IMG/VR virus record: IMGVR_UViG_3300035670_013228
Span: 64,001 to 128,000 of that record
Strand: one strand, 5' to 3'
DNA: 64,000 nt
DNA from: a virus
Below, piece after piece: positions 3-37,989 of this stretch. The translations under genes and the position numbers were made by a program. Under the pieces are notes generated by a model. The model ran no database searches. It saw only the letters and a program-made list of their open reading frames with translations, and had not been told where the DNA came from. Every line of letters starts with the position of its first letter. The stretch's first letter is position 1.

Positions 3-3000
3 GAAAAAGCTATTAGATATATAAATAGAGCGTTAGCTAAGACAGGAAAAGCAGATGCTGCTAAAGAAGCAAAAGAAGCAGCTATGAGGAAAGTTGCAAT
101 CGCCGGATTATTTCCATTAGATTATAATAAAGATTTTTCAGACTGGAAGTTGGAAGATGGTAGAGAAATTTATGGTTATGTTAGAGGATTTCAATCTAGC
201 TTTTTACCACAAATAGAAGCTATGCAAGAGGCTAATAGAGCTACTCGCCAAAAATTTGCTGAAGATATTCAGGATACGGCAGCATTAGGCGGATTAGGTA
301 ATAGAAATATTCAAGGACCAATTCAACCATTAGCAATAGATTTTGATGAAACATTAGCTCTTGGAACAAAAATGCTAGATGAAAATGGTAAAGAAGATTT
401 ACCAGCCTATTCGGATAGAAAAAAGGTTATGGACAGCCTGGCCAAAGCTAGACCAACCTCTCTAGCTAAAAGATTGGCCAGTATAGAACAAAAAAATCCT
501 GGATATGTTAGGATGTTTAGTCGTATCTTAACGGCCCGTCCTCAAAGCACAGCAGATATTATAACATCTACTCTTAATAGATTCGGATTACCATATATAG
601 AACAAGATGTCACTGGAGTTAGTAAAGGATTAGGAACAGATATAGCAAAAGCAAAAGCTGCGAATGTTGCAAGAGCTGAAAAATTAATCGATGATAGTGA
701 AGAAAATATTAGAGCAACAATGGCTGCTGGTAAAAGCACTTTTCGTTATGGCGAAGTACCAGAACTCAAAGGACCAGCAGAAGAAAAATTTGGACAATCT
801 AATATTGAAGGAGGCTTGTTAGAAGCGGCACTATCTCAATTATTGGGTTATCCAATAAATGTTGATGCTTTACAAAGAAATAGGGCGATTGATTTTCCAC
901 AAGGACTAGGTAGAGGTGCTCAACTTTTTGGATTACCTCCGAATATTGAAACAGAAGTAAAAAGGACTTTGGATGGAGACAGTTTTTCAAAAGCCAGAGA
1001 AGAATTTAGTAGATACTTTACAGAAAATCCACAAGCCTATGCTAAAGGAGGAGCAGCAACATTTGGCTCTGGATCATTTAAATTTCCCAAAAGAATAAGT
1101 AATGCTTATGTTCGGGAAATGGAAAAATTATTAGAACAAGAACAAATGGAGAAGGTTTTTGAGACGTATCCTCGTAATGAAAGAATGATTGTAGACGAAG
1201 AGGCTGTACAAAAAGGTTACGAATCTCCTTTTAGTAGAGAACTATTCATAAATTCATTTAAGGATAAAATAAGCAGAAATACAGTTTTTGAAAGAATGGG
1301 ACAATTTGCGAGAGTTATAGGATTGCCACCCACAGACTTTTTGTCTGCTATACCAACTCAGTTAGATTTTGGTGTTAATTATCCTGCTACAGCATTATTT
1401 AACAAGGATCCTTCTGGTCCAGGAACCAGAGGATTACAAGGAGTAGATTTAACACCATATGGTTATACTGAACAAGATAAACAAGATTTATTTGGATATA
1501 CTAAACTAATAGAAGAGAAAAAGAAACAAATATTAAAAACAATCAAAACTTCTGTTACAACATATGAAGATGGTAGTTTTGGTTATGATGTAGCTCTAGC
1601 AGAAAAACTAAGAGTAGAATTAAACGATCTACAAAAACAACAAAGATCTCTTATTGATAAAAATAATGCAGCCATTAAAGCTGCAAAAGAATCTAGATTA
1701 CAATCCGCAAACCAGAGTGGTCGTGGTAGCGTTGGTATAGCAACTAATCCGTTCAATACAAGTCAACGTCAAGACTATAGTATTTTATATCATGAATTAA
1801 CTCATCAACTTTTTAATAGTCTTAGAACTAAAAATGCTCAATCATTTGAAGCATACAAGGCAAAAGTTGCTAGTTTATTTAGTGGAAATAATGATGATGT
1901 AGCAGATGCTTTTGATGCTCTGGTGGGAAATACAGGATATAATAGTGCTGATGTTGCTTATGGAAGAAGTTATAAACTTAGTGGACTAAGCAGCTTGATG
2001 ATGGGATCGGCCAAAGAGTCATTTGCAAAATATGTTAATAGTGACCCAGAATATGTTCCAGAATTAAGAAAAACCTGGGCTGAAACAACCTCCACTACAA
2101 CCGCCAAAGCCTTTAAGCCACTTAATCCTAAAGTTAATGATATTTTATTAAGGGGTCAAATAAGTCAAGATGTTATAGATAAATATGAAGATAATGGCAA
2201 AGAAGAATTTTTAACAACACTAATACAAAAATTACCATTATTAGATGAAAATCTAAGCGGAGTTTTGGATAGTACTCTAAATGAGTTGTTAGGAGGCGCT
2301 GGAATAAGTAGACAAAAATTTGCTCTCGGTGGATTAGCAGATTCTAAAGATGCTATGTCTGGATTAATGCAAGGATTATATGGAAATAGAAGACAGCAAA
2401 CAGACAAAAAAGAAAAAGATTTTGGGAAAATAAGTATCACAGAAGACGGTGATATGCTTAGTGTTGGATATCTTAAAAATGAGAGTAGATCAGGATATGT
2501 ACAAGCAATGAAATACAAAGATAATCTATGGTATGTTGGATTATCAAAAGCTACTAAAGGATATGGACCAAGATTGTATGATGTGGCTATGGAGGCTGTG
2601 ACTGAAAAAGGAGGTATGCTAACTTCCGATAGAAGTATGGTCAGCTCTGATGCTCAAAAGGTTTGGGCTTATTACTTTAAAAATAGAGGAGATGTTAAAA
2701 AAACACCATTAGAACCAGAAAATTGGACTAAAAATCAAGCACTAATAGATCCTAAGCTTTATGGAAGAAAAGAAACATGGCCTCCAGCAAATGATCCGGC
2801 TTGGATACTACAGAGCGGCTATAGCAAAAGCCCCACCTTGCTTAATGATCCAGAACAAGTAAAAAGAAATAATAATAGAACACAAAAACCTGTTGATTCT
2901 AGAAGTATGGCTCTGTCATATTTTCAAAGAGCTGATGGCGGACCAATAAACCGTTTTGCTGATGGTGGTTCTGTTCCGGCTTTGGTAAGCAATGGTGAAG

Positions 3001-6000
3001 CTTATGTTCCTCCCAAACTTGCTAAACGTATTGGTTATGGAACATTAAATCGTATGAATCAAGCTGATAAAAATGGTATGGGACGATTTAGTGATGGTGG
3101 AATTAGTATATTTAAGGGGCCAGGAAGCGGAACTAGTGATAGTATACCAACAAGTTTACCTGTTGGAAGTTTTATAATAAGAGAAAAAGCTACAAAAGCC
3201 TTGGGATTAAATAGGGGCGGAAGTGTTGGAATACCACGTTTTAAAGACGGTGGTAGTCCAGGAAATCTAGAAGCAGAAATACAAAGAATATTAATAGAAC
3301 TAGAAAACTTTAAAAAAGCTATTTACGAAGGAGCTAGACAAGCGGGTAAAACAGCCACAGAAGCCAAACAGCAAGCAGACAGAGCGGTACTATCCAAAGG
3401 TTCAGAGATTCTATCTAGAACCGCAAAGCCTATAGATCCGAAAAACTTACCCCGAGGCAAAACACTTGAACAGGCCGAATCGGAAAGATCACAAACTCGA
3501 TCAGCCTCTTTTGAAGCACTAAGAAGGATGCAGGATCAATCTCCTATACTAAAGTCTAATACTGCAATACAAGTCTCTACTAGTCAAAAGATAACTGGAT
3601 TTTTTCAACAAATACTAGGTTTTTCTAAACAAACAGCACAAGCTCAACAAGACGGAGCTAAAGCTCAACAACAAGCGAGTAGCGCTATACAGCAATCTTC
3701 TGATCAACTACAGAATACCAGTAAAAAACAAAGTAACATTAATTTTGGGGGATTCGGTACGGCATTAGCTTTTACAGGACCGGCTCTTGCTAGTCAATTG
3801 GGAGAGGTCATAGGAGGAGCAACGGGTGCCGGCGTAGCAGGGGTCGCGTCTAATGTTTCAACATTTACTAGTATAGGTTCACAATTCGGTGGTATTGGAG
3901 CAATCGGAGGTTTACTAGTCGGATTAGCCACGTCCATAGATAGTTGGGGTGCTAGTATTGCAAATTTTGAAGCAACGGCTAGTGCTGCTAGAATCGATCA
4001 GATATTTGATACTACAACCAAAGCATTTGAAAGATTATCTACTAATATTAATGATAAAGGAGCTTTTAATGATGTTATAGGAAATTTTCAGAGAATACAA
4101 AATGAAGAAGTAAAATTAGCGGCTTTTAGAGAAAAAGCTAATGCTCCGTCAACACTAACCGGTTTGGGCAGAAGAATCGGCTTATTGTCAACACCAACCG
4201 CTGAAACAGTAGGAGGAGAAAAAGCGGTTAGTCAACAAAAAGCAGCAGCTGTGGCTCAACAATTTTTAGAATCTCAGATACAAGCAGAACAGGATTATAA
4301 AACAGTATCACAAAAACTACAACAAGCCGGATCCTCTTTTGATAGTTTATATGCTTCTATTTTAGAAGCTGATACAGCCTATGCTGTGGAGGTTGAAAAA
4401 ATTAAACAATCAACAGATACAGAAGATAGAAAAAATCAAAAAATTAACGAACTAACAGCTCAAAAAACACAAGAAATTAGAACAAGCATAGAAACTAGAT
4501 TTGCTGATATAGAAAGAGCCAAAGCAAACAAAAGACTAACTAAACAACTAGATTTTGTATCCGTTAGTTTGACCAGAACTTTTACCACGCTAAACCAATC
4601 AATTAACGCGGCTGCATTTAGTTTAGATCAAGCTTCTGAAAGTATTCAAAATATTGTTAATGATTCTGCAAATTTTAGTAATAGATTAAGAACATCTAAT
4701 ATTTTAGAAAATCCTAGAGCTTACTCTAGAGCCGAACAAAATGCCGCTATATCTCAATCCGCCCAATTTGCTGGAGGAGATAGACAGTTTATAGAACAAT
4801 TTGCACGATTTAGTTTAGATATAGAGGATTCCATGACATCCGCTCTGAATCAAGCCAGAGCAGGAGGAGTTACAGATCCTAATGTTATAGGAGACAGATT
4901 TGGTTCTTTGTTAACCAATCAACTAGATAGTATTTTTGGACCGCAACTTGGAGAAAGTATCAGATCGCAATTTAAAACAGCTATCAACGAATTAACAAAA
5001 GGAGGAACAAAATTAGAAGATATTAGTACACAAGATATATTAGATAATATACCCGGACTAAATCAACAAGTACAAGCTAGTAAACAAGTATTCGAAGCAT
5101 TAAATGCTAGTGCAAAATTTTTAGAAAATGCTTTGAATTTTGTTGGAGCATCAGCTAAAGAATATGGATCTTTACAAGATAAATTAGCTGAAAATATAGC
5201 ATCTTCACAAAATATTATTGCTCAAAGTAATCTTAGTTTACAAGAAGCGCTAGGCAAAAGAATCTCATTAAGCGAAAGAAGACAGGCTAGAACATCAACC
5301 GCTGCTATTCGTGCTGGAGTAAGACCACAAGATTTAAATGCTAATTTCTTATCTGATAGAAGAGATACATTAATACAACAAAAACAAAATATCGAAAAAT
5401 CATTAGACAATCTATCACAGTCTTTTAATAAGAGAGATTTAGCAGCATCTAGACAATTCGTTGAGCTCAATAAACAACTAGGCTTAACAGAATCTTCTAT
5501 TAGACAAGTTAATCAGGCACTAGAAAGTTTACCGCAAAATATAGAGCAAAATATTAATGATATTATTTCAGAAATATCTAGATTACAACAAAAATCTGTT
5601 AATATCACAGGAGCATCAACATCATTTGGCGAAAAACTATTAGGAAGTACTCCTCAAGAACTACAGGAACTAGGAACAACATTCAATATTCTTAATAGTG
5701 CATTATCTGGTAATTTAAATACTATTCAACAATCTCAAGCTGCTCAACTAGCTTATAGACAAGCTTTGGATGATGGAAAAACTCAACAAGAAGCTATGGT
5801 AGTTGCTCAACAGGCTTTTGCCGGACAAACAAGAAATGTTTTAGGATTGTTTAATGAACTTAGTTCTATGAGTGGTCTAGAAGAAGATGAACTTAGACCA
5901 ATAAGAGCACAATTATTCAAAAATTTAGCATCATCTCAAGGAGCAGGACTAGAAAATAATCCTATATTTCAAACTATTATTAATAGGTTGGAACAGCCAC

Positions 6001-9000
6001 CAGAAGAAAGTAGAGAAATAAGAGAATTAAGAAATTTATTACAGGTTGAACAACAATCTTTAATACAGAGCACAGAAACAATTAATCAAAATACCCTAGA
6101 TAAACAAACAGCAGTATTAGATGCTGCTAATCAAAGATTTATAGATGCATTAAATGATATTGAGGTTAGATTTAATACAGAACAATTAAGAAGCATGGGA
6201 TTAGGATTAAGTAGACCAGGAGATATTAAGCCGCCGGCGGCCCCTCAAGCCAGAGCCAAAGGAGGCTTAATTTATGCTAGTGATGGAACATATGTAAATT
6301 ATCAACCTAAAGGTACTGATACTATACCAGCAATGCTAAGTCCGGGAGAATTTGTGGTTAACGCACAAGCTACTAAAAATAATCTTGGTTTATTAAGATC
6401 TATTAATAGTAGTGTTGGTAGTGGAAAAACTTTTAGTAGTGGAGGAGTAGTTTATGCAGCTGACGGTGGGTCGTCAGCAGCCAAGGGATTATTTAGTAAC
6501 AGATATTTTCCAACACTTGGTCCAATATGGGATAGTATTAAAAAGTTATTTAGCTCCGCTGGTAAATTTAGTATTCCCAATTTGGGTAATTTGGGTAAAT
6601 TAGATTTAACTCAATTATTGAGCAGTGGGGTTCGTGGATTAGGTAGGCTTGGAGGTAATATTGGTAATACTCTCATAGACGATTTTGCTAAGGGTGGTTT
6701 GAAAACCGCAATCACAAACATTGTTGATGCATTTAGTAGTTTGGGTAATACTTTTTCTCTAACATCTGACGGAAACCTGCTTCCAGGACAGTCAGATAGC
6801 GTACTAGATGATGTTAGTAAAAATTTAAGAAGTATATTCAGCAAGACCAAAGGCGCTGGTGTGCTGTTTAGATATTTGGGGCCATTGATCGGTGGTGTGC
6901 AAGGATTTATGGCCGATACGGAAAAAACCAAAAGAAACTCGTATGCTAATGCAGCATTAGGAGCACTTACCGGAAGTGGTACCACCATGGGGGATGTTGG
7001 CGCAACATCTATTACCGGATCTCAAACTGGTGGTAATTTATTACAAGCTGGTTTGGCAACAGCGCAGTATATGAGTATGGGGGTTCCACCACCACTAGCC
7101 GCTGCTTTAGCTGCTGGCGCCATGACTACCCAAGAAGTTATGGGATATATGGGAGATATTGATGAAACAAGAGCGTCTGAGGCCAGAACACAATCTATTA
7201 GTCAATCTCAACGAAATGCTGGTAGAGTAGTTTCTAATGACATAAAGCGAAAACCAGGAGAAACTAACGAAGAATATAGAAGTCGCAGAATAGAAGAAAG
7301 AGCAGTCGAAAGAGTTGGCGCAAATAAACTTGTAGGATTTAATGCTAATGAAAGATTATGGATAGCTACTAAAGCTAGATTAACAAATGAAAAAGAATCA
7401 TTATTATCACGACTTGGTCCGGATAGTCCTCAAGTGGTAGAGATTGATAGAAAAATTAAAGAACATGATAATAGTCGTTCTAGTATTTTTCAAGATACAA
7501 GATTTAATAGCACTGGAGCTGTTTTAAGTTATATCGGATTAGGTAGTGCTACTACTGTTAACGAAACTAAGAGCGCGACAGAAATAGAAGCTGCTGTACA
7601 AAGTGAACAAAAATACCAAAAAGCCATGGCAGTTGCAAGAAGAGAAGAACAAGAATATTTTGCAGATATGGATGATAGAAGAGCATTAGCTAGACAAAAT
7701 AAGCTGGAAAAAGAATTAAAAGACAAAGGTATATCTTTGGATAAGGACGGTGATGACGAGTTAGATTCCGAGTTCGTAAAGGAAGAGGGGGATCCGGACT
7801 ATCAACGTTATCTGGATATGCAGGCTATATTCGATACGCAACAATTTATACAAAGGAGTGAGAAAGCAGCGGAAACCGAAGCAAACGACAAAGCCGAATT
7901 ATTAGAACTTGGCTTACCATCCTATGCTTCTGAGGCTCAAGTCGATGCGGCCCGGCAGATACGCGATGCTAAACAACAAGCCACACAGATAGAACAAAGG
8001 ATAAAAGAAGAATTAGATACGGATAATATTCCGGGAGTAGGCAGATTCAAAACATCGTCTCAATTACGAGCAGATGCGTCTGATAGAAATTTTGGTTTAC
8101 CACCAGAGGTTTTGGCTAGTGGTAACTTTAATGAGTGGCAACAATTATTAGCAAAGAAAGAAAAAATATTTGCAAAAATTGAAGAATTGAATCGTGGCAG
8201 ATTGGTATCTAGTGGTGATCCGTTTAGTGGTGATACTATTACCACCTCTTTGAGAGAAGCTAATGCAGATGAATTAGGGCGATATTTAACAGAATATCAA
8301 CAGCTAGCACAAATAGATAGTGATCTAGCACGGGCATATCAAACCGGATTAGAAAACTATGCAAGCACAAATTATCCAAGCGCAGATATAGATGAGGTAC
8401 GAAGTATGGCTTGGGATGATTATGATAAAGGTATACGATCCAAAGAAGCAGAAGCTCAAAAAAGAGACAAACTTGCAGCAAATAAAGAAGCTGATAAACA
8501 AGCTAAGATGTGGAAAACCGTAGCTAGTATAAGTAATGTTAAATTACCTTCTAAATTCGAGAATCCTGGTAAATTCTTAACTTTCAGATCAAATATATTA
8601 GATAAACTAAAGAGTAAATTTCCATTATCGGGAGATCCGTCAACAGATATTCAAACTATGCAACAATATGGTTTAGATGCTAATATAGCCGAGGCTATAT
8701 TCAAACCATTTGATAATAATCAAATAGCTGCTGTAGCATCTTTAATTCCTATTAGTGCAAATACTGATCCTGTTTTGCGCAGTCAAGTATCATTATTATC
8801 TCAAGCATCCAGCGCATCAATCGACACTGCTAAAAATAATGCATATTTATTAAATATTATACAAAAGAATCCTAAAGTTAATCAAAAATTTAAAACAGCT
8901 TTTATTAAAAGTGTTAATGATATAAATAACTTTAATAAAATGGTTACTGGATATAATCAATTAGATCCAACAAAACAAAATAATGCTAGAGCTAATTTAC

Positions 9001-12000
9001 TTAAAAGATTAACTAGACAAGGATATATTGATCCTAGAGATCCTAATGGTAGCATTGATAGACTAAATGCTTTGGGTGGCACTAATGTTTCTCAGTTCCT
9101 ATTTCCTAATCAACAAGCTCAAAATAAAGTTATCAGAATAGCCGGTGCTAAAAATTCAGGAGGTATAGTATATGCTAGTGGCGGAATGCTTGTGCCGTAC
9201 GAGCCCAAAGGAACTGATACTGTGCCGGCTATGCTTACCCCAGGAGAGTTTGTTGTTAATAAACAAGCAACAGCAAGAAATAAAGGATTATTAGAATCTA
9301 TTAATAGAAGCAAAGGAGGAAGTGTTAAATATTTAGCTGATGGAGGTTTGGCTTCAGATACTAGTGATAAAATTACAGTAGGCACTAAAGATGGAACTAG
9401 TATAGTAAGACAGAATCCATTGTATACAACAGTTCAAGATAATCTACGATATACTAAGCGATTAGATAGTATGGCTGTGAGTACAGAGAAAACATTGAAG
9501 GGTCATACACGATCTCTTGAGTATATAGGATCAGGAGTTACAAAACTTAATAATCGTATTGATTCGGCAAGTACTACATTAGGCGTACCATTTTCTAGAG
9601 GTGGAATAGTTTATGCTAGTAATGGAATGTTAGTTCCTTATCAACCAAAAGGCACAGATACTGTTCCGGCCATGTTGACTCCCGGCGAATTTGTGGTTAA
9701 TCGTCAAGCAACATCTAAACATAGAGGTTTGCTAGAATCTATTAATAGAAACAAAGGAGGAAGTGTTAAATATTTAGCAAATGGTGGGCCCTCTTCTGAT
9801 AGCGAAGTAACAAAAGTTGTTGACGGAGTGCAGATAACAAAACCTAGCGAGGTATTAAAATTAAGCAAAGAAAATTTATCTACTAGTAAAACTCTTTTAA
9901 CGAATAGTATCAAAACCAAAGAAATATTACAGAACAGTAACAATTATTTCGTTTCTAGTGATAAAACAGTTAATGAAAAACTAGATAAGATTTTACAAGA
10001 TAATAAAGGACTAAGAGAAGATACAGCGCAAGAACATAAGAAGACTAGAAGACATATTGAGCGTGAACATTTTCATACTAAAGAATATATTGATTATGCA
10101 CACTATGGGACTAGGGACAAGCTAGTGGCTGAACATGCTACTACGAGAACTCATATTACTGCCGAAGATAACGATACTAGACAATACGTTGCTGATCAGC
10201 ATGACAATACCAGAAAGTCTGTTGCTGATGAGCATAAGAAGACTAGATCTGAGATCCCTTCCCATCTGAAGATCTCGATGAAGGCAAGAGGAGCTGAAAC
10301 AGACGCACATACCACGATTGAGGCGATGGGTATTAAATCACATGTTACAGACGAACATAAGCTTACCAGAAACTTTTTGTTGCGTCAACAGCCTAAAAAT
10401 CTTGCTTCTGGCGGCATAGTTTATGCTAGTAATGGACAACTAATTAATTTTCAACCAAAAGGTACCGACACTGTTCCGGCAATGTTAACGCCGGGAGAAT
10501 TTGTTGTTAATGCAAAAGCTACTAAAAATAATTTAGATTTATTACATAGTATAAATAATGGTGGCAAACCATATAGTAGAGGAGGTGTTATTCATTTACA
10601 AGATGGTGGACTAGCAGTAGACAAAGGAGATAGAGTAGCAGAAGCATATAATGCTACATTAAAAGCATATGAACAACCCGAAGACGCTCAGCTAACGAAC
10701 AAAAAAATACCCATAAAAGGTGGTGAAGCTCAATATTTTCCAAAATTAGATTATTTTGCTCTATATGATAGACCTAGTGGGATTCCTGATGAAAACAGGA
10801 TCAGTGGCGATTCATTCTCAAGAGGATTTAGAATTCAGGTAAGAGAAGGAATAATAAGTAGAAGCAATGTACCACGAGAGCCTTCGGCCGCTGTTAGCGA
10901 ATTAGGAGACGAAGAACTTTCCACTATTTGGACAATTAATAAACAAGACTGGCTTAGCGATGAGGCCGCGAAACGAGGAGTTGATATTAATAGAGGTGAT
11001 AATCGTCCGTGGAAAGATAGAGTTCAGAACCGTCTTCCAACGGAATACCCAGAAAAATGGTGGGAAAAGTTCGATCAAGATCCGGAATTAAGAGAAAATC
11101 TGGCGACGCTTAACGCTGCCGCCAACACAATGGGTGGTAGCAGTAAAATTAGCCCTATCTGGGATTATGGACGGAACTCTAGAGATCAAGTTGAAACCAT
11201 TAGAAAGAAGATAAAAGATTATTTAGTAGCTAAAAAAATTAAAGAATCTGTTGCAGAAGACACAGCAATGGGAATATCAGAATCGGAAATATTAACATAT
11301 TTAGAAAGATATTCATCTTTAACAGACTTTAATAGTAACAAGAGCGACAAAGATGAAAAACTATATTTTTGGGAACAATGGTTGAGTAGAATTAGATTAT
11401 ATAATAGAGTCACAGGGAGAGAGGACCAGGAGGGACCGACTATTTATATACCAAATGATCAAACTCCGCAACAGAGAGAAGATGCTAGACTAGCAGCAGA
11501 AGCGAGAAAAGCTGAAGAGATCAGAAAAGAAGAACAAAGAAAAGCTGAAGCAACTAGAAAAAGAGTAGAAGACTATAAAACAGAGAGAACACGAGCACAG
11601 CGCGCACAAGATCCTGATGCTATTTGGAAATTACCTGGCGATAAAGAACAAACAACAAACGAATGGTCAGGAAAACCACCACAGCCTGAAAGAAGATGGG
11701 TTTCTCTAGATGAGAAATACGCCACCATTGGAACATTAGTTGCTTATAAAGATGGTAAAGCATCTATTCGTAAACCAACTGGTCAAACTATAGTTGTTGA
11801 TCAAAATAAATTAAGTGAAATGGATCAAAAGTATTTGACTGATCTTCTTATTGAACAAAAAACACAGCCTCTACCAACTCCGAAATCTCGAACTGGTCCG
11901 CAAACTTTGCCAACACCACAATCTCAAACGCGTCAGCAACCCTTACCAATCCCAAAACCTCAAACCGGTCCTCAAACAAAACCAGCCGATAGGCAATTAC

Positions 12001-14549
12001 CGACTCCCAGACCTCAAACCGGTCCTCAAACAAAGCCAATCCCCGAACCCAAGACTATTCCTCAAGATAATTCATATGTATGGTTAGGTGGACATAAAAT
12101 AAATGATAAACCACTAAAAGGAACTTACATTAATAAAGATAGTAATGGCGTACTTATACAAACTCCGGAAGGAAAAAATATCAGAGTAGATCCGTATACT
12201 TGGAATAAATATTCGACTCCAGAAGACAAAGCAAAAACCATGTCTCCTTCTGCTATGAGTCGTGGAGGAATAGTTTATGCTCAATTTGGAGGATTATTAA
12301 ATGATGATCAGTCTACAGTAGATATTTATAATCCACAAGCAATGAAGTCTACTTTAGACAGTTTAACAATGTCATTATTACCATATACCAGCAATGAAGT
12401 TGGACAACAAAGATTAATAATGGCTACAAATCAAAACTATGGCATAAGTGGTATAAGGCAATCAAATTTGCCGGGTAGAGCATCCGCAATGTTTGATGTT
12501 CAGTCTAGAAATTTAGTGTTTCGAGACAGAGTAATAAGATCAGCAACAGCAAAACACGAAATGGCTCATGCTTTAGCAAATAGTGTTCATGCTCCTCCAA
12601 CAACTAGAGATCAACAATTTGCAAATCAGATGGGACAATTTTCTTCCGAAGAAGCTCTTAGAATATGGGAAGCAAGAGCACAAATTAAAAAACAACAATA
12701 TATAGAGTCTGGGATAGACCGAGAACGTGTTGAACAACAATATCAGGCAGAAAAAAGGTTGCTGATACAACAACTTGGAAATAGAGGAAACGCTAGAAAT
12801 AGTATTGTTGCACAAATGGGAGAAGAACTTTACGAAAATAATTATCAACAACTGGCTGATACTAGTTATACCCTAGATCAACTAAATGCTATGCCTAATG
12901 AACTATTTGCTGTTATTGCTAGTATAGCAGACGCACCCGAATTTAGTAATATGCCGGCGAGTCAAGCTTTTTTGAAACAAAGCATGAGAACTTTAGGCTA
13001 TAGTAAAGGCGGAGTTGTTTATGCTAATAAGGGTATGCTAATTCCATACCAACCAAAAGGCACCGACACTGTTCCGGCCATGTTAACTCCTGGGGAGTTT
13101 GTTATAAACAGAGCAGCCACACAGGCTAATTTACCTTTATTACAAAGTATCAATAGCGGGAGGTATAATAAAGGAGGCATAGTTTATGCCGAGGATGGTA
13201 AATGTATTGGCAAGCAAACAGAAGATAAGTCAAATACAGAATCCAAACAACCAAAAAAGAAAGAACAATCTGCGAATCAGACACAAAATAATGTACAAGG
13301 AATAGATATTACCGATCCAAGACAAAGAGAACAAGCACTTGGTGGAATGTATAGAAGCTTAATTCCTTATACTACGGGAGAAGCTGGACAACAAAAATTA
13401 GCTATGGGTTTTACAGCATTGAAATCTGTAAGAATCAATATTAATCAGAGTAGACTTAAACAAAAGGGAGCTGGCGCGGAATTTGAGACATCTGGTCTAG
13501 GAACAGATCCTGGAACAATATATGTTCCTGGAAAAATGGTTGATACACCATTATTAAGGCACGAATATGGCCATGCTCTCATAGCAGCAACAACTCCTAG
13601 ACAATTTATGCAGAATATCTCTGGGGTTGCTCCTATAAGTCAATTTATCAACAGTTTAGAAAAAGCTAATGCTCGCATCAGGGTTACTCCACATAACTAT
13701 GAGGATGGTGGAGAAGTTGAGGATAAAAAAACACAACAACCATCAGAAAAAACCAATACTATAGGAATTTATAACAAAGAGCAGTTATTAAAAAATCCTC
13801 AGGAGGTATTCGCTACGCTCGTTCAATTGATAGGTAGTAACTTATTTCATAATTTGGGCGGGTCTGATGCTCTTCGTGCTGCTATGAAAATTTATGGATT
13901 TAATAAAGGAGGAATGGTTTATGCTAATAATGGTATGTTAATCGATTATAAACCAAAGGGTACGGATACTGTTCCTGCTATGCTTACTCCCGGCGAGTTT
14001 GTTATTAATCGCCAAGCAACACAACAAAATCTGCCCTTGTTGAGAGCTATAAATAATGGAGATAGCGCAATACCATATAGCAATGGTGGAATTGCTTATC
14101 TAAGACGAGGCGGCCAAACTAGTAACCTGTCGCAATCTTATGGATATGCTCAGCAATTTGACAATATTTCTAGGCAACTACAAGTATTTAATGGTATATT
14201 AATGGGCGCTAATCAGACACTAAATCAATTTGGAAATACATTACAACAAATTGGAGTCAATTTACAAAGAAATAATCAGAATATTGGCGGCGGTGTAAAT
14301 AATATTGATGGATTATCAAGATTTACATCAGCTTTTAATACTTTTATTACCCAATTGTCTTCTATTAGGATTCCAGAAATTATAACTATGCAACTAGCAC
14401 CATTACCACCAATTCAGGTAGTTATTACAGGAGCCGAAGCTCTTGCTGCTATAGAACCAGGACTACAAAGAACAATTAGTAGTCGTATAAATGAAGCATT
14501 GTCTTCTTTTGCTAATAATTTTGATGGAATAGATATTCAACAATCATAA
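3..14549 (+). CDS. Giant tape-measure-like polyvalent protein, 5'-truncated by the window edge (>4,848 aa)
   Basis: The frame of the 84..14549 ORF is open from nt 3 (EKAIRYINRALAKTGKADAAKEAKEAAM), so ATG84 is internal. It has long Q/E/A-rich coiled-coil stretches, Gly/Ala-rich hydrophobic segments (~3740-3960, ~6560-7150) and repeated GG..GEFV..GG motifs typical of tape-measure C-termini, and lies directly upstream of tail genes. Confidence 0.8.
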   Translation, partial: EKAIRYINRALAKTGKADAAKEAKEAAMRKVAIAGLFPLDYNKDFSDWKLEDGREIYGYVRGFQSSFLPQIEAMQEANRATRQKFAEDIQDTAALGGLGNRNIQGPIQPLAIDFDETLALGTKMLDENGKEDLPAYSDRKKVMDSLAKARPTSLAKRLASIEQKNPGYVRMFSRILTARPQSTADIITSTLNRFGLPYIEQDVTGVSKGLGTDIAKAKAANVARAEKLIDDSEENIRATMAAGKSTFRYGEVPELKGPAEEKFGQSNIEGGLLEAALSQLLGYPINVDALQRNRAIDFPQGLGRGAQLFGLPPNIETEVKRTLDGDSFSKAREEFSRYFTENPQAYAKGGAATFGSGSFKFPKRISNAYVREMEKLLEQEQMEKVFETYPRNERMIVDEEAVQKGYESPFSRELFINSFKDKISRNTVFERMGQFARVIGLPPTDFLSAIPTQLDFGVNYPATALFNKDPSGPGTRGLQGVDLTPYGYTEQDKQDLFGYTKLIEEKKKQILKTIKTSVTTYEDGSFGYDVALAEKLRVELNDLQKQQRSLIDKNNAAIKAAKESRLQSANQSGRGSVGIATNPFNTSQRQDYSILYHELTHQLFNSLRTKNAQSFEAYKAKVASLFSGNNDDVADAFDALVGNTGYNSADVAYGRSYKLSGLSSLMMGSAKESFAKYVNSDPEYVPELRKTWAETTSTTTAKAFKPLNPKVNDILLRGQISQDVIDKYEDNGKEEFLTTLIQKLPLLDENLSGVLDSTLNELLGGAGISRQKFALGGLADSKDAMSGLMQGLYGNRRQQTDKKEKDFGKISITEDGDMLSVGYLKNESRSGYVQAMKYKDNLWYVGLSKATKGYGPRLYDVAMEAVTEKGGMLTSDRSMVSSDAQKVWAYYFKNRGDVKKTPLEPENWTKNQALIDPKLYGRKETWPPANDPAWILQSGYSKSPTLLNDPEQVKRNNNRTQKPVDSRSMALSYFQRADGGPINRFADGGSVPALVSNGEAYVPPKLAKRIGYGTLNRMNQADKNGMGRFSDGGISIFKGPGSGTSDSIPTSLPVGSFIIREKATKALGLNRGGSVGIPRFKDGGSPGNLEAEIQRILIELENFKKAIYEGARQAGKTATEAKQQADRAVLSKGSEILSRTAKPIDPKNLPRGKTLEQAESERSQTRSASFEALRRMQDQSPILKSNTAIQVSTSQKITGFFQQILGFSKQTAQAQQDGAKAQQQASSAIQQSSDQLQNTSKKQSNINFGGFGTALAFTGPALASQLGEVIGGATGAGVAGVASNVSTFTSIGSQFGGIGAIGGLLVGLATSIDSWGASIANFEATASAARIDQIFDTTTKAFERLSTNINDKGAFNDVIGNFQRIQNEEVKLAAFREKANAPSTLTGLGRRIGLLSTPTAETVGGEKAVSQQKAAAVAQQFLESQIQAEQDYKTVSQKLQQAGSSFDSLYASILEADTAYAVEVEKIKQSTDTEDRKNQKINELTAQKTQEIRTSIETRFADIERAKANKRLTKQLDFVSVSLTRTFTTLNQSINAAAFSLDQASESIQNIVNDSANFSNRLRTSNILENPRAYSRAEQNAAISQSAQFAGGDRQFIEQFARFSLDIEDSMTSALNQARAGGVTDPNVIGDRFGSLLTNQLDSIFGPQLGESIRSQFKTAINELTKGGTKLEDISTQDILDNIPGLNQQVQASKQVFEALNASAKFLENALNFVGASAKEYGSLQDKLAENIASSQNIIAQSNLSLQEALGKRISLSERRQARTSTAAIRAGVRPQDLNANFLSDRRDTLIQQKQNIEKSLDNLSQSFNKRDLAASRQFVELNKQLGLTESSIRQVNQALESLPQNIEQNINDIISEISRLQQKSVNITGASTSFGEKLLGSTPQELQELGTTFNILNSALSGNLNTIQQSQAAQLAYRQALDDGKTQQEAMVVAQQAFAGQTRNVLGLFNELSSMSGLEEDELRPIRAQLFKNLASSQGAGLENNPIFQTIINRLEQPPEESREIRELRNLLQVEQQSLIQSTETINQNTLDKQTAVLDAANQRFIDALNDIEVRFNTEQLRSMGLGLSRPGDIKPPAAPQARAKGGLIYASDGTYVNYQPKGTDTIPAMLSPGEFVVNAQATKNNLGLLRSINSSVGSGKTFSSGGVVYAADGGSSAAKGLFSNRYFPTLGPIWDSIKKLFSSAGKFSIPNLGNLGKLDLTQLLSSGVRGLGRLGGNIGNTLIDDFAKGGLKTAITNIVDAFSSLGNTFSLTSDGNLLPGQSDSVLDDVSKNLRSIFSKTKGAGVLFRYLGPLIGGVQGFMADTEKTKRNSYANAALGALTGSGTTMGDVGATSITGSQTGGNLLQAGLATAQYMSMGVPPPLAAALAAGAMTTQEVMGYMGDIDETRASEARTQSISQSQRNAGRVVSNDIKRKPGETNEEYRSRRIEERAVERVGANKLVGFNANERLWIATKARLTNEKESLLSRLGPDSPQVVEIDRKIKEHDNSRSSIFQDTRFNSTGAVLSYIGLGSATTVNETKSATEIEAAVQSEQKYQKAMAVARREEQEYFADMDDRRALARQNKLEKELKDKGISLDKDGDDELDSEFVKEEGDPDYQRYLDMQAIFDTQQFIQRSEKAAETEANDKAELLELGLPSYASEAQVDAARQIRDAKQQATQIEQRIKEELDTDNIPGVGRFKTSSQLRADASDRNFGLPPEVLASGNFNEWQQLLAKKEKIFAKIEELNRGRLVSSGDPFSGDTITTSLREANADELGRYLTEYQQLAQIDSDLARAYQTGLENYASTNYPSADIDEVRSMAWDDYDKGIRSKEAEAQKRDKLAANKEADKQAKMWKTVASISNVKLPSKFENPGKFLTFRSNILDKLKSKFPLSGDPSTDIQTMQQYGLDANIAEAIFKPFDNNQIAAVASLIPISANTDPVLRSQVSLLSQASSASIDTAKNNAYLLNIIQKNPKVNQKFKTAFIKSVNDINNFNKMVTGYNQLDPTKQNNARANLLKRLTRQGYIDPRDPNGSIDRLNALGGTNVSQFLFPNQQAQNKVIRIAGAKNSGGIVYASGGMLVPYEPKGTDTVPAMLTPGEFVVNKQATARNKGLLESINRSKGGSVKYLADGGLASDTSDKITVGTKDGTSIVRQNPLYTTVQDNLRYTKRLDSMAVSTEKTLKGHTRSLEYIGSGVTKLNNRIDSASTTLGVPFSRGGIVYASNGMLVPYQPKGTDTVPAMLTPGEFVVNRQATSKHRGLLESINRNKGGSVKYLANGGPSSDSEVTKVVDGVQITKPSEVLKLSKENLSTSKTLLTNSIKTKEILQNSNNYFVSSDKTVNEKLDKILQDNKGLREDTAQEHKKTRRHIEREHFHTKEYIDYAHYGTRDKLVAEHATTRTHITAEDNDTRQYVADQHDNTRKSVADEHKKTRSEIPSHLKISMKARGAETDAHTTIEAMGIKSHVTDEHKLTRNFLLRQQPKNLASGGIVYASNGQLINFQPKGTDTVPAMLTPGEFVVNAKATKNNLDLLHSINNGGKPYSRGGVIHLQDGGLAVDKGDRVAEAYNATLKAYEQPEDAQLTNKKIPIKGGEAQYFPKLDYFALYDRPSGIPDENRISGDSFSRGFRIQVREGIISRSNVPREPSAAVSELGDEELSTIWTINKQDWLSDEAAKRGVDINRGDNRPWKDRVQNRLPTEYPEKWWEKFDQDPELRENLATLNAAANTMGGSSKISPIWDYGRNSRDQVETIRKKIKDYLVAKKIKESVAEDTAMGISESEILTYLERYSSLTDFNSNKSDKDEKLYFWEQWLSRIRLYNRVTGREDQEGPTIYIPNDQTPQQREDARLAAEARKAEEIRKEEQRKAEATRKRVEDYKTERTRAQRAQDPDAIWKLPGDKEQTTNEWSGKPPQPERRWVSLDEKYATIGTLVAYKDGKASIRKPTGQTIVVDQNKLSEMDQKYLTDLLIEQKTQPLPTPKSRTGPQTLPTPQSQTRQQPLPIPKPQTGPQTKPADRQLPTPRPQTGPQTKPIPEPKTIPQDNSYVWLGGHKINDKPLKGTYINKDSNGVLIQTPEGKNIRVDPYTWNKYSTPEDKAKTMSPSAMSRGGIVYAQFGGLLNDDQSTVDIYNPQAMKSTLDSLTMSLLPYTSNEVGQQRLIMATNQNYGISGIRQSNLPGRASAMFDVQSRNLVFRDRVIRSATAKHEMAHALANSVHAPPTTRDQQFANQMGQFSSEEALRIWEARAQIKKQQYIESGIDRERVEQQYQAEKRLLIQQLGNRGNARNSIVAQMGEELYENNYQQLADTSYTLDQLNAMPNELFAVIASIADAPEFSNMPASQAFLKQSMRTLGYSKGGVVYANKGMLIPYQPKGTDTVPAMLTPGEFVINRAATQANLPLLQSINSGRYNKGGIVYAEDGKCIGKQTEDKSNTESKQPKKKEQSANQTQNNVQGIDITDPRQREQALGGMYRSLIPYTTGEAGQQKLAMGFTALKSVRININQSRLKQKGAGAEFETSGLGTDPGTIYVPGKMVDTPLLRHEYGHALIAATTPRQFMQNISGVAPISQFINSLEKANARIRVTPHNYEDGGEVEDKKTQQPSEKTNTIGIYNKEQLLKNPQEVFATLVQLIGSNLFHNLGGSDALRAAMKIYGFNKGGMVYANNGMLIDYKPKGTDTVPAMLTPGEFVINRQATQQNLPLLRAINNGDSAIPYSNGGIAYLRRGGQTSNLSQSYGYAQQFDNISRQLQVFNGILMGANQTLNQFGNTLQQIGVNLQRNNQNIGGGVNNIDGLSRFTSAFNTFITQLSSIRIPEIITMQLAPLPPIQVVITGAEALAAIEPGLQRTISSRINEALSSFANNFDGIDIQQS
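10032..10262 (+). repeat. Seven tandem 11-aa (33-nt) His-containing repeats, consensus EHxxTRxxIxx
   Basis: EHKKTRRHIER EHFHTKEYIDY AHYGTRDKLVA EHATTRTHITA EDNDTRQYVAD QHDNTRKSVAD EHKKTRSEIPS, with a further EHKLTR at ~10352. Confidence 0.9.
11866..12066 (+). repeat. Pro/Gln/Thr-rich linker repeat (LPTPxPQTGPQTKP-like)
   Basis: QPLPTPKSRTGPQTLPTPQSQTRQQPLPIPKPQTGPQTKPADRQLPTPRPQTGPQTKPIPEP, with the DNA repeat cctcaaaccggtcctcaaacaaa present twice. Confidence 0.85.
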
Positions 14550-36244: not shown

Positions 36245-36246
36245 TT

Positions 36247-36711
36247 ATGTTTTGTGAATTTGAAGATACAAAAAAAATCTATAATAATAAAAAAATCTAT
36301 AAATGTAAAAATTGCAAATTGGAAGTTGCTTTAGAAAATCCACAAACCAAAATTATTTGTTTTCATTTTACCAGGCAAGATATAGATGCTTCTTTATTAG
36401 CGGCTGATTTTCAACCATCAGTAAATTATGGTCATATAGATGATCCAACATCTTTTATAAGACAGCAGGCAGAAAATCATCTAGTAAAAATGGGCAAAGA
36501 TCCTGCTACTCCAACGTATGATCCAAAAGATTTATTATGTTCAGAGGACCAGATCAAAGACAGAATGAATATTTGTAAAACATGCGAATATTTTCAAAAT
36601 AATTCGTGTAATTTATGTGGTTGTTCTATTACTAGAGATAAAAACTATCATAATAAACTAGCTAATAAACAAGCTAGTTGTCCAGCTAAAAAATGGGGAC
36701 CTATTAGTTAG
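36247..36711 (+). CDS. Small Cys-rich protein, DUF6171-like C-terminus
   Basis: The R..IC..CEYF....C.LCGC....K......SCPAKKW motif plus an N-terminal CKNCK. The start is more likely ATG36247 than the track's 36235. Confidence 0.6.
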   Translation: MFCEFEDTKKIYNNKKIYKCKNCKLEVALENPQTKIICFHFTRQDIDASLLAADFQPSVNYGHIDDPTSFIRQQAENHLVKMGKDPATPTYDPKDLLCSEDQIKDRMNICKTCEYFQNNSCNLCGCSITRDKNYHNKLANKQASCPAKKWGPIS

Positions 36712-37696
36712 TAAAAGTTTCTATAACTTGAATATCTTGTCCCAAAACAACAACTGAATTTCTAGTATATACACCCTTTAGAGTTTTGATACGCACAGTC
36801 ACAGGAACTCTAGTATTGCTCGTCCAACTTCTAAAGAAATGCACACCCACAACAAATCTTCCGTGCGGAGAGCTGTTGTAGGGCCAAAAAACATTTTCTA
36901 TAGGATTATTATTTCTAGGTCCTCCAGCATTCATATCAATATCCAAAATCGCTCCGGATACACCGGCTCTTTTTCTCCAAAAAATAATCTCATTAATTCC
37001 GGATCCAATATATTGAACATGTAAGTCTATATCATCGGGAGTAGACCATGATAAAGATATTTGAACATCTCCTGTTCCGGCCCCATACATTTGTATTTTT
37101 TCTTCTATAGAATTTGTAGCATTAGGAGCACCTGTAGAGACGCTAGGAGTAATGGTTCGTTTAGGAATACCTTTGCCAATGGAAGTTCCTTTAGACACAA
37201 GTTGTTTTAAGGTATTGTCGGCACTCGTTTGACTTGTTGAATTCTCGCTTTTAACTTTTACAGGAGATTCTACATCATCAAACATTCTGTCGATATTAGG
37301 CTTGTGATTTACCATCGATTCCAATAGGGTAGATTCCTCCATCGAAACAATATCCGAGGTGTCAGATGATTCCGGTATTGATTCTTCCTCGAATACCGGA
37401 TTGATACTGGACTCTGGTTCCGTAATCAGTTCGGTATTATTGGTGTCTGTAACAAAATGCGATGTTGTTACTTCTAGTTCCAAGTTTACTGTATTGGTAT
37501 TGTCGTACTCAACCACCTCAGACAATGAAGATAGTTCAATAACTATAGGAGGCTTTTGTTTTTCTGCAACTATAAACACAAATGACAGTGTTAATAATAC
37601 AACGCAATGTATTATTAAGCTTTGCCAAAAACCATGTTCATAACCATAAAATACAATATTATCAATTATTCTTGTTCTTTTTTCCATTTGTGCCAA
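36704..37696 (-). CDS. Membrane-anchored YfaP/DUF2135-like protein
   Basis: N-terminal hydrophobic helix (SLIIHCVVLLTLSFVFIV), acidic linker, and a C-terminal GDVQISLSW.TPDDIDLHV..LDIDMN.GG....IENVFWP..G.F.VGVHFF domain. Confidence 0.7.
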   Translation of the reverse strand: MAQMEKRTRIIDNIVFYGYEHGFWQSLIIHCVVLLTLSFVFIVAEKQKPPIVIELSSLSEVVEYDNTNTVNLELEVTTSHFVTDTNNTELITEPESSINPVFEEESIPESSDTSDIVSMEESTLLESMVNHKPNIDRMFDDVESPVKVKSENSTSQTSADNTLKQLVSKGTSIGKGIPKRTITPSVSTGAPNATNSIEEKIQMYGAGTGDVQISLSWSTPDDIDLHVQYIGSGINEIIFWRKRAGVSGAILDIDMNAGGPRNNNPIENVFWPYNSSPHGRFVVGVHFFRSWTSNTRVPVTVRIKTLKGVYTRNSVVVLGQDIQVIETFTN

Positions 37697-37989
37697 CCGT
37701 TATTTGGTAACCAATTGCCTTCATCATCTTTTCTTTTAGGAAATAATGTGCCGCCTTTTTTATGTTGACCGAAAGCTAAAATAGCTCCGCAATCCATACA
37801 TCTCAATTCATAATAATCATTACCCTCTACATTTCGTACAATAAATCTGAGATTAGTACTTCCGCACAACCCACATTTTGTTTCTCCAAAAATTTCCTGT
37901 ATAAGAGCTATCTCCTTAAAAACTTCCTTTTGACCACTACCCTCTAATTCAAACTGCAATTTATCATTAGCCTTATATAGTACTTTCAT
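37666..37989 (-). CDS. Zinc-ribbon hypothetical protein
   Basis: CGLCG and CMDCG pairs in 107 aa. Confidence 0.65.
   Translation of the reverse strand: MKVLYKANDKLQFELEGSGQKEVFKEIALIQEIFGETKCGLCGSTNLRFIVRNVEGNDYYELRCMDCGAILAFGQHKKGGTLFPKRKDDEGNWLPNNGWHKWKKEQE

Follow-up and report, generated by a model that had tools for sequence, protein, structure and literature searches.

In phages lambda, T5 and JBD30, the tape measure protein (TMP; gpH, pb2 and gp46, respectively) combines a TP901-type N-terminal core and hydrophobic glycine-rich segments with an element that occurs once, beside the hub-anchored, proteolytically trimmed C-terminus. Residues 1022–1066 of the JBD30 protein are predicted to form a hook, which has been likened to the T5 structure that holds the TMP in the baseplate tube (PMC11445458). 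In lambda gpH the cut falls within a Gly-rich region and is made by a protease of unknown identity (PMC12617516). In T5 pb2 the cut follows R1127, and the freed pb2C, which carries a metallopeptidase motif, has been proposed to play a periplasmic role (PMC10038345). Tape measures exit the tail before the DNA (PMC12617516, PMC10038345). Enzymes built into a TMP and delivered at infection are found in SPbeta YomI (transglycosylase/peptidase), mycobacteriophage TM4 (Rpf-like motif) and T5 pb2C, as one or two cell-wall enzymes at fixed positions. Polyvalent proteins (Iyer et al. 2017, PMC5512222) join unrelated enzyme domains, with interspersed and enriched HExxH domains, on one huge polypeptide of variable architecture that is presumably delivered with the invading DNA; their anchors are MuF, ArdC, N4 RNAP and similar domains, and that study nowhere uses ‘tape measure’, ‘TMP’ or ‘tail tape’. 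Contractile injection systems (CIS) have modular TMP-related effectors such as Sle1, in which a TMP-derived carrier with an exchangeable functional domain is packaged in a tail-like tube and ejected from it, although Sle1-type proteins are small, bear a single cargo and belong to bacterial CIS particles, and repeated docking modules have not been reported for them (PMC13277306, PMC11126660).

The TMP described here shares the core and the hydrophobic glycine-rich segments with gpH, pb2 and gp46; however, it is five to seven times longer, carries the element in nine copies and contains many unrelated globular cassettes, which follow a grammar of ending in hydrophobic-x-x-G-G (ΦxxGG) and are extensively exchanged. 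The window analysed, a DNA stretch of 64,000 nt, contains an open reading frame at nt 3–14549 (plus strand, as are all window features below) that is open throughout but cut off by the window edge. The full gene encodes 6,196 aa. Its ATG, preceded by AAGGA, lies 4,044 nt ahead of the window, and genome positions 59959–64002 encode the 1,348 aa that precede the window part (aa 1349–6196). The tape measure identity proposed in the initial annotation was confirmed by matches of the N-terminal core to PF10145 (E 2.9e-22, 80 bits, cut-off 33.2) and TIGR01760 (E 4.4e-25, 88.4 bits, cut-off 28.8), and PHROG tape measure families are also matched by the 6,196-aa protein. The observation stood, but the gene is longer than described. 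That core lies in the upstream part and had gone unseen; one module and a P-loop/nucleotidyltransferase cassette, both upstream of the window, had likewise been missed. PF10145 matches this reading frame alone in the whole genome (177,880 bp), and the protein is the only recognised tape measure of an uncultured phage of ~178 kb.

The same flanking genes are conserved in relatives whose TMPs range from 3,512 to 6,196 aa, and no recognisable family was found among the adjoining tail genes. The tail of the phage is probably non-contractile; a search for sheath families was negative, which is weak evidence in this direction. Comparison of the window part with Pfam, PHROG, NCBIfam and PADLOC gave nothing above threshold except modules matching PHROG tape measure families. 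No match to INPHARED phages was obtained with blastn, and tblastn against cultured phages detected the TMP core or single modules only, the nearest cultured match of the N-terminus being an SPbeta-like TMP core (22–27 % identity). The moraphage lineage (PMC12619734) is a different group.

The repeated element is a module of about 75 aa with the pattern GG...PAMLTPGEFV...GG, and the nine matches of its profile in the 178-kb genome all lie inside the TMP reading frame. The six strong copies recognised earlier have GTDT[VI]PAML[TS]PGEFV centres at window aa 2115, 3081, 3228, 3498, 4364 and 4664 (modules 1 to 6, at nt 6255–6503, 9153–9380, 9594–9821, 10404–10643, 13002–13247 and 13902–14147), and the two degenerate copies recognised with them are located in tandem at window aa ~986–1092 (nt 2958–3278; GGSVPALVSNGEAYV and GTSDSIPTSLPVGSFII). 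The ninth copy, upstream of the window, occupies aa 523–595 of the full protein. The invariant spacing originally described holds for the segment that joins the leading GG and the PGEFV core, over which the modules align without gaps, but not to the distance between core and trailing GG, which is variable. Similarly, near-identity is a property of the 17-residue core and not of whole modules, which are 62–85 % identical as protein and use the same codon at just 36–70 % of identical residues. The nucleotide identity of the repeats is 61–76 %, and their synonymous sites have diverged, which rules out recent duplication or gene conversion and makes homologous recombination between the modules, previously invoked as the route of remodelling, unlikely.

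The module resembles the near-C-terminal element of other tape measures in that it aligns with residues 1015–1070 of JBD30 gp46 (E 0.0066); similarity to lambda gpH 750–777 is weak (hhalign E 2.4e-4, probability 43.5 %, 27 columns only). The last copy is situated 133 aa from the C-terminus, the canonical place of the gpH-type element, but the copy number is nine and not one. Among cultured phages the module matches annotated tape measures only, at one place per record; in the cultured Nodularia phages vB_NspS-kac65 and 2AV2, the tape measure (3,312 aa) bears two modules internally. The profile also matches all 192 metagenomic relatives, which excludes a chance origin. Judged from these alignments, the modules are old, diverged repeats of a putative docking motif that is found once in ordinary tape measures.

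The modules, in 7–9 copies, punctuate a scaffold composed of the TP901-type core, two long TMP-like glycine-zipper blocks and a C-terminal tail, and the scaffold encloses two cargo bays of exchangeable globular cassettes, each closed by ΦxxGG. The N-proximal bay, which separates the core from the first long block, contains putative nucleotide-directed enzymes, its contents being a P-loop plus HIGH nucleotidyltransferase pair, a HAD phosphatase, a 427-aa HExxH domain and a small conserved domain. In the window it begins with cassette B3 (nt 3–1052, starting 52 aa upstream), which includes the HAD phosphatase core (nt 321–743) and, in its C-terminal part, a nuclease-like E..D..ExK region (nt 771–1052), and closes with YAKGG (nt 1038–1052, window aa 346–350). 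Cassette B4 (427 aa, nt 1053–2333) has its HExxH motif, HELTH, at nt 1791–1805 and closes with FALGG (nt 2319–2333, aa 773–777), and cassette B5 (208 aa, nt 2334–2957) has a conserved SKATKGYGPRLYD and ends with RADGG (aa 981–985). The degenerate tandem modules, which are kept in 134 of 191 relatives, follow and end with FKDGG (aa 1080–1084). These four motifs, all placed in the window, are the (F/Y)xxGG-type closures noted initially.

The first long block, B6 (nt 3279–6254), is TMP-like in composition and hydropathy, rich in G/A/S/T/Q/N, and contains a hydrophobic glycine-zipper stretch (nt 3750–3959); the second, B7 (nt 6504–9152), has a Gly-rich hydrophobic start and is shared by few close relatives only. 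The distal bay, beyond this second block, comprises small HExxH domains and lineage-specific blocks. Blocks B8 (71 aa, nt 9381–9593), B9 (nt 9822–10403; His/Thr/Arg-rich repeats of ~11 residues) and B10a, the N-terminal part of B10 (nt 10644–13001), lack a counterpart in all 191 family members. The remainder of B10 carries two SHD1-like units (nt 11688–11843 and 12075–12227) separated by a Pro-rich linker (nt 11865–12068), and a small HExxH domain (HEMAH, nt 12555–12569). The latter has a paralogue (blastp E 2e-10) in cassette B11 (nt 13248–13901; HEYGH, nt 13560–13574, with an invariant Glu downstream), which is located between modules 5 and 6. In T5, too, a metallopeptidase motif lies between the element region and the C-terminus. 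Module 6, in the canonical near-C-terminal position, is followed by the C-terminal 133 aa and the stop codon (nt 14148–14549), with TMP-like composition and a hydrophobic stretch.

Enzyme folds between the modules had been claimed in the initial annotation, which also proposed a fold check of each inter-repeat block. In Pfam scans of blocks B1–B11, and in precomputed hits for the cargo of relatives, no cargo block reached threshold. The sole cassette with a confirmed enzyme fold is B3, for which a Rossmannoid HAD fold was found; HAD motifs I–IV (DxDxT, T/S, K, DD) are present, and among 11 sequences with identities down to 25 %, conservation is complete or reaches at least 90 % at D166-F-D168, T230, K271 and D283-D284. 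B3 is a Pnkp/AphA-like HAD phosphatase of putative activity. The upstream cassette contains Walker A, H/TxGH and ISGT motifs and matches UvrA, NMNAT/NadR and MJ0951, and these motifs support its assignment as a putative P-loop plus HIGH nucleotidyltransferase pair. The GNAT, nuclease and SHD1 assignments were not confirmed. For B5, a profile search of the PDB gave no match and an atlas feature search returned a rank-19 cluster with 13 % Acetyltransf_1, a weak acetyltransferase lead only; free-standing, unnamed relatives of 180–235 aa exist. The E..D..ExK pattern of B3 is conserved in a region modelled at pLDDT 48–70, for which the atlas search gave no lead, and SHD1 (PF03983) scored below threshold in B10 (14.9 bits against a gathering cut-off of 23.7, E 0.024), with precomputed PF03983 hits in some relatives.

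As for the zincins reported earlier, the HExxH catalytic residues proved invariant in all three domains, but none has a recognisable zincin fold. In B4, H247, E248 and H251 are invariant in a 23-sequence alignment, and the AF2 model is confident (pLDDT 89.7, pTM 0.85), yet no meaningful match to this model was found in the PDB (Foldseek), 48,161 PDB representatives (VIA-align), the ESM Atlas or BFVD, nor did its profile match any PDB sequence; B4 was therefore not called a zincin by fold. Only 43 hits to B4 were obtained in 1.84 billion representatives, nearly all of them giant proteins. In the small HExxH domain, H105, E106, H109 and E186 are invariant among six sequences of 25–32 % identity; its profile gave spurious matches only in the PDB and sub-threshold matches in Pfam (Peptidase_M91, 0.051; DUF6055, 0.011). 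HExxH motifs occur at 0.65 per family member against 0.006 expected, an enrichment of ~100-fold.

The family comprises at least 192 metagenomic relatives, in at least 192 clusters and on contigs of up to 240 kb, with TMPs of 3,428–7,872 aa that share the scaffold, contain 1–9 modules and carry variable, almost wholly unannotated cargo. The first module is found at a median of aa 532 and the last at a median of 147 aa from the C-terminus, and the smallest relatives (~3,430 aa) consist of scaffold and modules with almost nothing else. Block presence, scored over 191 relatives, ranges from 0 to 133 (block B6b is present in 121), and relatives that share their flanking genes span a 1.8-fold range of TMP length. 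The comparison of cargo order suggested in the initial annotation revealed 24 different combinations or orders of the five N-proximal cassettes, and a fixed domain order, which would have counted against the initial interpretation, is absent. B2, B3 and B5 lie before block B6b without exception and B4 in 19 of the 22 relatives that have it; B11 is invariably found after that block.

Exchange is most evident between nt 3865 and 7297 of the gene, where 3.4 kb spanning three cassettes is 92 % identical in nucleotide sequence to relative L006, whereas the rest of the gene is at most 74 % identical or unalignable. The breakpoints of this tract fall exactly at GG (..GG|TVE and RFKDG|G), the right-hand one at the end of the degenerate modules. 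On these nucleotide identities, the tract is a recent transfer. In L009-type relatives B5 is an indel bounded by GG, and across the family the ends of homology accumulate directly after GG at 10 of 24 peaks, against a GG background of once per 97 aa. Each cassette moves from phage to phage as a whole, and its junctions coincide exactly with GG.

These findings favour, with a fair degree of probability, an exchangeable-cargo tape measure with a conserved scaffold, whose cassettes would be delivered to the host. Because TMPs depart from the tail before the DNA does, the host cell would receive the cassettes, the distal ones arriving first, into the envelope, and the proximal ones last, with the DNA end, to serve as pre-made envelope-breaching and counter-defence enzymes. 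The analysis suggests a phage tail that may deliver a changeable set of proteins. The lumen of the tail tube is ~4 nm wide. Present three (or six) times, folded domains of 200–430 aa would be too large for it; the cassettes must be unfolded in transit or lie elsewhere, unless the tail is very unusual. More speculatively, the chain may also be cut at the GG junctions or close to them, in the way that gpH and pb2 each receive a single cut.

The alternative that fares best, possible but doubtful, is a true polyprotein, in which cleavage would follow each ΦxxGG, carried out by the chain's HExxH domains or by a protease of the host or the phage, and would release many injected effectors and free ~75-aa module peptides. 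It would be consistent with conservation on the P4–P1 side of GG that is lost right after it, as expected if the site were recognised from its P side, with a closing ΦxxGG of its own on every cassette, with the HExxH enrichment, with the single cuts of lambda gpH and T5 pb2 near this element (PMC12617516, PMC10038345) and with the proposal that zincin peptidases process polyvalent proteins (PMC5512222). On the other hand, the T5 cut follows Arg and not GG, the HExxH blocks are not recognisable as peptidases by fold or profile, about one-third of relatives would be without HExxH (mean 0.65 per protein), and cutting all junctions before assembly would wreck the ruler. A search of the genome for a GG-specific protease of the Prok-JAB or Peptidase_C39 (double-glycine peptidase) type found none, with divergent or host enzymes still possible, and ΦxxGG conservation could merely reflect the first strand of the module and not a processing signal.

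A giant ruler of purely structural function seems unlikely. In such a protein the modules would be register, trimer or tube-docking elements required to hold a very long TMP in position; the TMP would be trimmed once in the usual way, and the blocks would be spacers or envelope-penetration aids acting in peptidoglycan hydrolysis, for which T5 pb2C and mycobacteriophage TM4 are precedents, and not cytoplasmic effectors. The strong purifying selection on module protein while codons diverged would fit a conserved structural partner, the smallest relatives are nearly pure scaffold and modules, the Nodularia phage TMP has two internal modules, and the small HExxH domains near the C-terminus resemble the muralytic metallopeptidase motif of T5 pb2C (PMC10038345). 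However, the proximal Pnkp-like HAD, P-loop and HIGH nucleotidyltransferase cassettes have no obvious envelope substrate, TMP length varies while flanking genes stay the same, and cassettes that are quickly gained, lost and horizontally exchanged between constant neighbours follow the pattern of conflict genes rather than that of a length ruler.

An artefact of assembly or gene calling, by which a contig would be chimeric or genes would be fused through collapsed repeats, can be practically dismissed: repeated modules could mislead assemblers and the record is a metagenome-derived IMG/VR sequence, but an 18.6-kb open frame in 33–38 % GC sequence is impossible by chance, repeats of 61–76 % DNA identity are too diverged for collapse, the architecture recurs in ~190 independent assemblies of different origin, and twelve independent viral contigs share a 93–95 % identical cassette tract within giant open reading frames.

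Within the exchangeable-cargo reading, one improbable form of delivery would be serial docking and cutting. The TMP would be extruded C-terminus first through the opened hub, each module re-docking in the hub crevice held by the single T5/JBD30 hook, and a cut after the neighbouring GG would free the cassette just extruded. A single shot of the tail would in this way deliver effectors in order: envelope-acting HExxH domains, then channel-forming hydrophobic blocks, and finally nucleotide-directed enzymes, of Pnkp-like end-healing or NadR-like NAD salvage type, which would accompany the DNA end into the cytoplasm. ΦxxGG would then be a processing signal and a legal cassette-exchange junction at once.

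The family represents a new, multi-cargo form of enzyme-bearing tape measures and polyvalent proteins. Compared with SPbeta YomI, TM4 and T5 pb2C, it has up to a dozen blocks in variable order, including putative nucleotide-directed enzymes. In polymorphic toxins, short conserved demarcation motifs such as VENN of CdiA and DPxGL of Rhs likewise mark an exact boundary before variable sequence and serve as a swap point; here, in contrast, the motif is different, there are many boundaries per protein, delivery would be by phage tail and no immunity genes were seen. Like polyvalent proteins (PMC5512222), the family member described here possesses several unrelated enzymatic domains, namely the HAD fold, the P-loop plus HIGH nucleotidyltransferase motifs and three HExxH domains, but its carrier is a tape measure, with a repeated tail-docking element and GG-terminated junctions separating the cassettes.

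A systematic survey could not confirm recent domain transfer in tape measures (PMC10684548), whereas a clear case within a TMP gene is documented here. The GG junctions beside the conserved element are candidate cut sites for lambda-type tape measures, a long-standing question, and the ΦxxGG junction with the ~75-aa module provides natural splice points at which phage tails or tailocin-like particles could be engineered to carry cargo. Members of the family are widespread, and, if the cargo reading is true, the TMP would be a programmable protein-delivery scaffold besides a ruler and channel former, and a tail-borne counterpart of head-packaged polyvalent proteins, which would explain how some large phages supply counter-defence enzymes before gene expression.

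The tape measure gene, truncated by the window edge, occupies 3..14549 (+ strand) as 4,848 codons without a stop (GC 33–38 %). In the genome, a 177,880-bp IMG/VR virus record with the window at bases 64001–128000, it starts at an ATG at 59959, preceded by AAGGA, and encodes a product of 6,196 aa. The protein matches PF10145 at residues 192–383 (E 2.9e-22, passing the cut-off) and TIGR01760 (tape_meas_TP901) at residues 153–496 (E 4.4e-25); no other PF10145 match exists in the 177,880 bp searched, and the family search found no sheath family in the genome. The core, the B6 scaffold block and the C-terminal tail are G/A/S/T/Q/N-rich and aromatic-poor, a ruler-like composition, whereas the cassettes look globular, and this split agrees with a division into scaffold and cargo.

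The surrounding genes follow a conserved order: the tape measure comes after an Mtd/YHYH protein and seven small genes and is followed by a protein of ~1,520 aa, and between these same neighbours the tape measure varies from 3,512 to 6,196 aa. The Mtd/YHYH protein, upstream of the window (genome 52075–54435), has 786 aa with fn3, Mtd N-terminal and YHYH domains and is of the diversity-generating-retroelement target type; it lies eight genes 5' of the tape measure gene, a position kept in relatives. On the 3' side, window 14564–36244 holds six large genes in a row (1517, 543, 544, 1332, 533 and 2730 aa) with zero Pfam or PHROG matches, which presumably encode the distal tail, hub and fibres; the ~1,520-aa homologue in relatives has a faint ice-binding-like match. 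At ~36200–37700, gene orientation and GC/AT skew flip, from structural genes on the + strand to − strand genes that continue to the window end.

The window contains six strong and two degenerate copies of a GG-bracketed module, and a further copy lies 5' of it (aa 523–595 of the full protein); the module profile finds nine sites in the genome, every one inside the tape measure ORF. The initial annotation called these modules near-identical, which holds for their 17-residue core but not for whole modules, which are 62–85 % identical. Since just 36–70 % of the identical residues share a codon between copies, the modules are old and maintained by protein-level selection rather than recent duplicates, and the suggested recombination through the repeats themselves is not borne out. 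The closing motifs YAKGG, FALGG, RADGG and FKDGG were all found where they had been placed.

The module profile matches the JBD30 tape measure (8rk3_A, residues 1015–1070, E 0.0066) and, weakly, lambda gpH (residues 750–777). In JBD30, residues 1022–1066 form a predicted hook, likened to the T5 structure that keeps the tape measure inside the baseplate tube once its C-terminal domain has been expelled (PMC11445458). The C-terminal piece of lambda gpH, gpHC, remains attached to the hub protein gpI and is produced by cleavage within a glycine-rich region, the site and the protease both being unknown (PMC12617516). Among cultured phages, the module is confined to annotated tape measures, with a single site in each record. 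The nearest exception is the cyanophage Nodularia phage vB_NspS-kac65v162 (MK605244, 6391–16329), also the closest model for internal modules that can be cultured: its annotated tape measure of 3,312 aa contains two PAMLTPGEFV modules in tandem (aa 915–948 and 987–1022), distant from the C-terminus.

At least 191 relatives of 3,428–7,872 aa, on contigs of up to about 240 kb, were collected from 5.8 billion protein clusters, and nearly all carry PF10145. Each of the 191 has one to nine modules, the first directly behind the core (median aa 532) and the last a median of 147 aa before the C-terminus. A literature search found no published description of such a giant multi-module tape measure family.

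For a test of mosaicism, the protein was divided at modules and GG motifs and each block was scored as present or absent in the 191 relatives. The core, the modules and block B6b are present in 121–183 of them, B2 in 80–81, the HAD-bearing B3 in 99, B4 in 39, B5 in 57 and B11 in nine; blocks B8, B9 and B10a occur in 0/191. The five proximal cassettes form 24 distinct combinations or orders, and they nearly always precede B6, while B11 and the C-terminal tail follow it in all cases, so that there are two cargo bays. In one case the exchange is recent: nucleotides 3865–7297 of the gene (aa 1289–2432; B3, B4, B5 and a double module), a tract carried by twelve viral contigs, show 92 % DNA identity to one contig, the rest of whose tape measure gene is at most 74 % identical or cannot be aligned. 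The identity begins after ..GG|TVE and ends at RFKDG|G. A second group has its shared tract ending at QKFA(L/I)GG| and restarting at GG(S/T)(V/I)PALVSNGEAYV, making B5 an indel flanked by two GG motifs. Family-wide, 10 of the 24 peaks among 1,144 local-alignment ends fall exactly after GG (YADGG|, YAKGG|, FALGG|, FKDGG|, ADGG|, ANGG| and QDGG| among them), although GG occurs once per 97 residues; conservation thus lies on the upstream side of GG and is lost directly beyond it. No genuine recent case in a tape measure could be confirmed by a survey of mosaicism in phage proteins (PMC10684548); the 92 %-identical cassette tract is one.

The expectation of enzyme domains between the modules was supported for one enzyme fold; the SHD1 score of the protein lies under the Pfam cut-off, although SHD1 is on record in several relatives, and profile and feature searches matched B5, with its conserved KATKGYGPRLYD motif and small free-standing relatives, to no named family. 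B2 (upstream of the window, genome 62383–63843), inside the tape measure gene immediately 5' of the HAD cassette, contains a P-loop (GVAGAGKTT) and HIGH-type nucleotidyltransferase motifs (GGFAPMTLGH ... ISGTMVRD). Its 14-sequence profile matches UvrA at Walker A segments (E 2.6e-4), MJ0951, a HIGH-type nucleotidyltransferase, at its ISGT motif (E 8.5e-4), and both NMNAT and NadR at H/TxGH (E 0.03–0.04). The arrangement resembles NadR or Pnkp, and a putative succession of P-loop kinase, HIGH nucleotidyltransferase and Pnkp/AphA-like phosphatase would be compatible with nucleic-acid end healing or NAD salvage.

HExxH motifs number 0.65 per family member against 0.006 expected. In B4, H247, E248 and H251 are invariant among 23 sequences, and the confident model from this alignment (pLDDT 89.7, pTM 0.85) had no meaningful match in four structure libraries, nor did a PDB profile search give one. 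Its profile found 43 proteins only among 1.84 billion representatives, mostly giant; a small number are short, align at one of their termini and resemble fragments, and the HExxH half is found separately elsewhere in such proteins. The small HExxH domains B10c and B11 are paralogues (E 2e-10) with the HExxH and a downstream Glu invariant in six sequences of 25–32 % identity; their profiles gave only sub-threshold hints. Window 11688–12227 encodes two ~50-aa SHD1-like (SH3-like) units linked by a 68-aa proline-rich PxPxP/GPQT repeat. B9 (window 9822–10403) contains a run of ~11-residue His/Thr/Arg-rich repeats (EHKKTRRHIER, EHATTRTHITA, QHDNTRKSVAD, EHKKTRSEIPS, EHKLTRNFLL) that may form a metal-binding or amphipathic-helix array. 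Precomputed matches in relatives include a faint ADP-ribosyl exotoxin family (P0019), staphylococcal nuclease (SNase; P0164), EF-hands (P0005, P0018, P0087), sigma-70 region 3 (P0104) and SHD1, indicating a cargo repertoire much wider across the family than in the 6,196-aa protein.

The analysis shows a single tape measure whose scaffold is conserved and whose hook-type modules are repeated; its GG-ended cassettes undergo gain, loss, reordering and horizontal exchange. The initial annotation had suggested that it could be a delivery polyprotein cut into several injected effectors; its observation is confirmed and extended, and its interpretation is partly supported, in that cassette shuffling, one enzyme fold and units bounded by GG are shown. 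Two points make putative cutting at GG attractive: the P side is the conserved one, and the tape measures of lambda and T5 are cut adjacent to a module-type element, T5 pb2 reportedly after R1127; no recognisable JAB or C39 peptidase is encoded in the genome. By established tape measure biology, the protein would occupy the tail lumen with its C-terminus anchored in the hub and exit before the DNA, so the cassettes would reach the host; three copies of the folded domains would exceed the lumen, which requires unfolded transit or an unusual tail. The cassette-bearing tape measure would be the counterpart, carried by the tail, of the polyvalent proteins described by Iyer et al., in whose paper 'tape measure', 'TMP' and 'tail tape' do not occur (PMC5512222), and we rate the family as a variant of kinds already known, polyvalent proteins and tape measures that bear enzymes.
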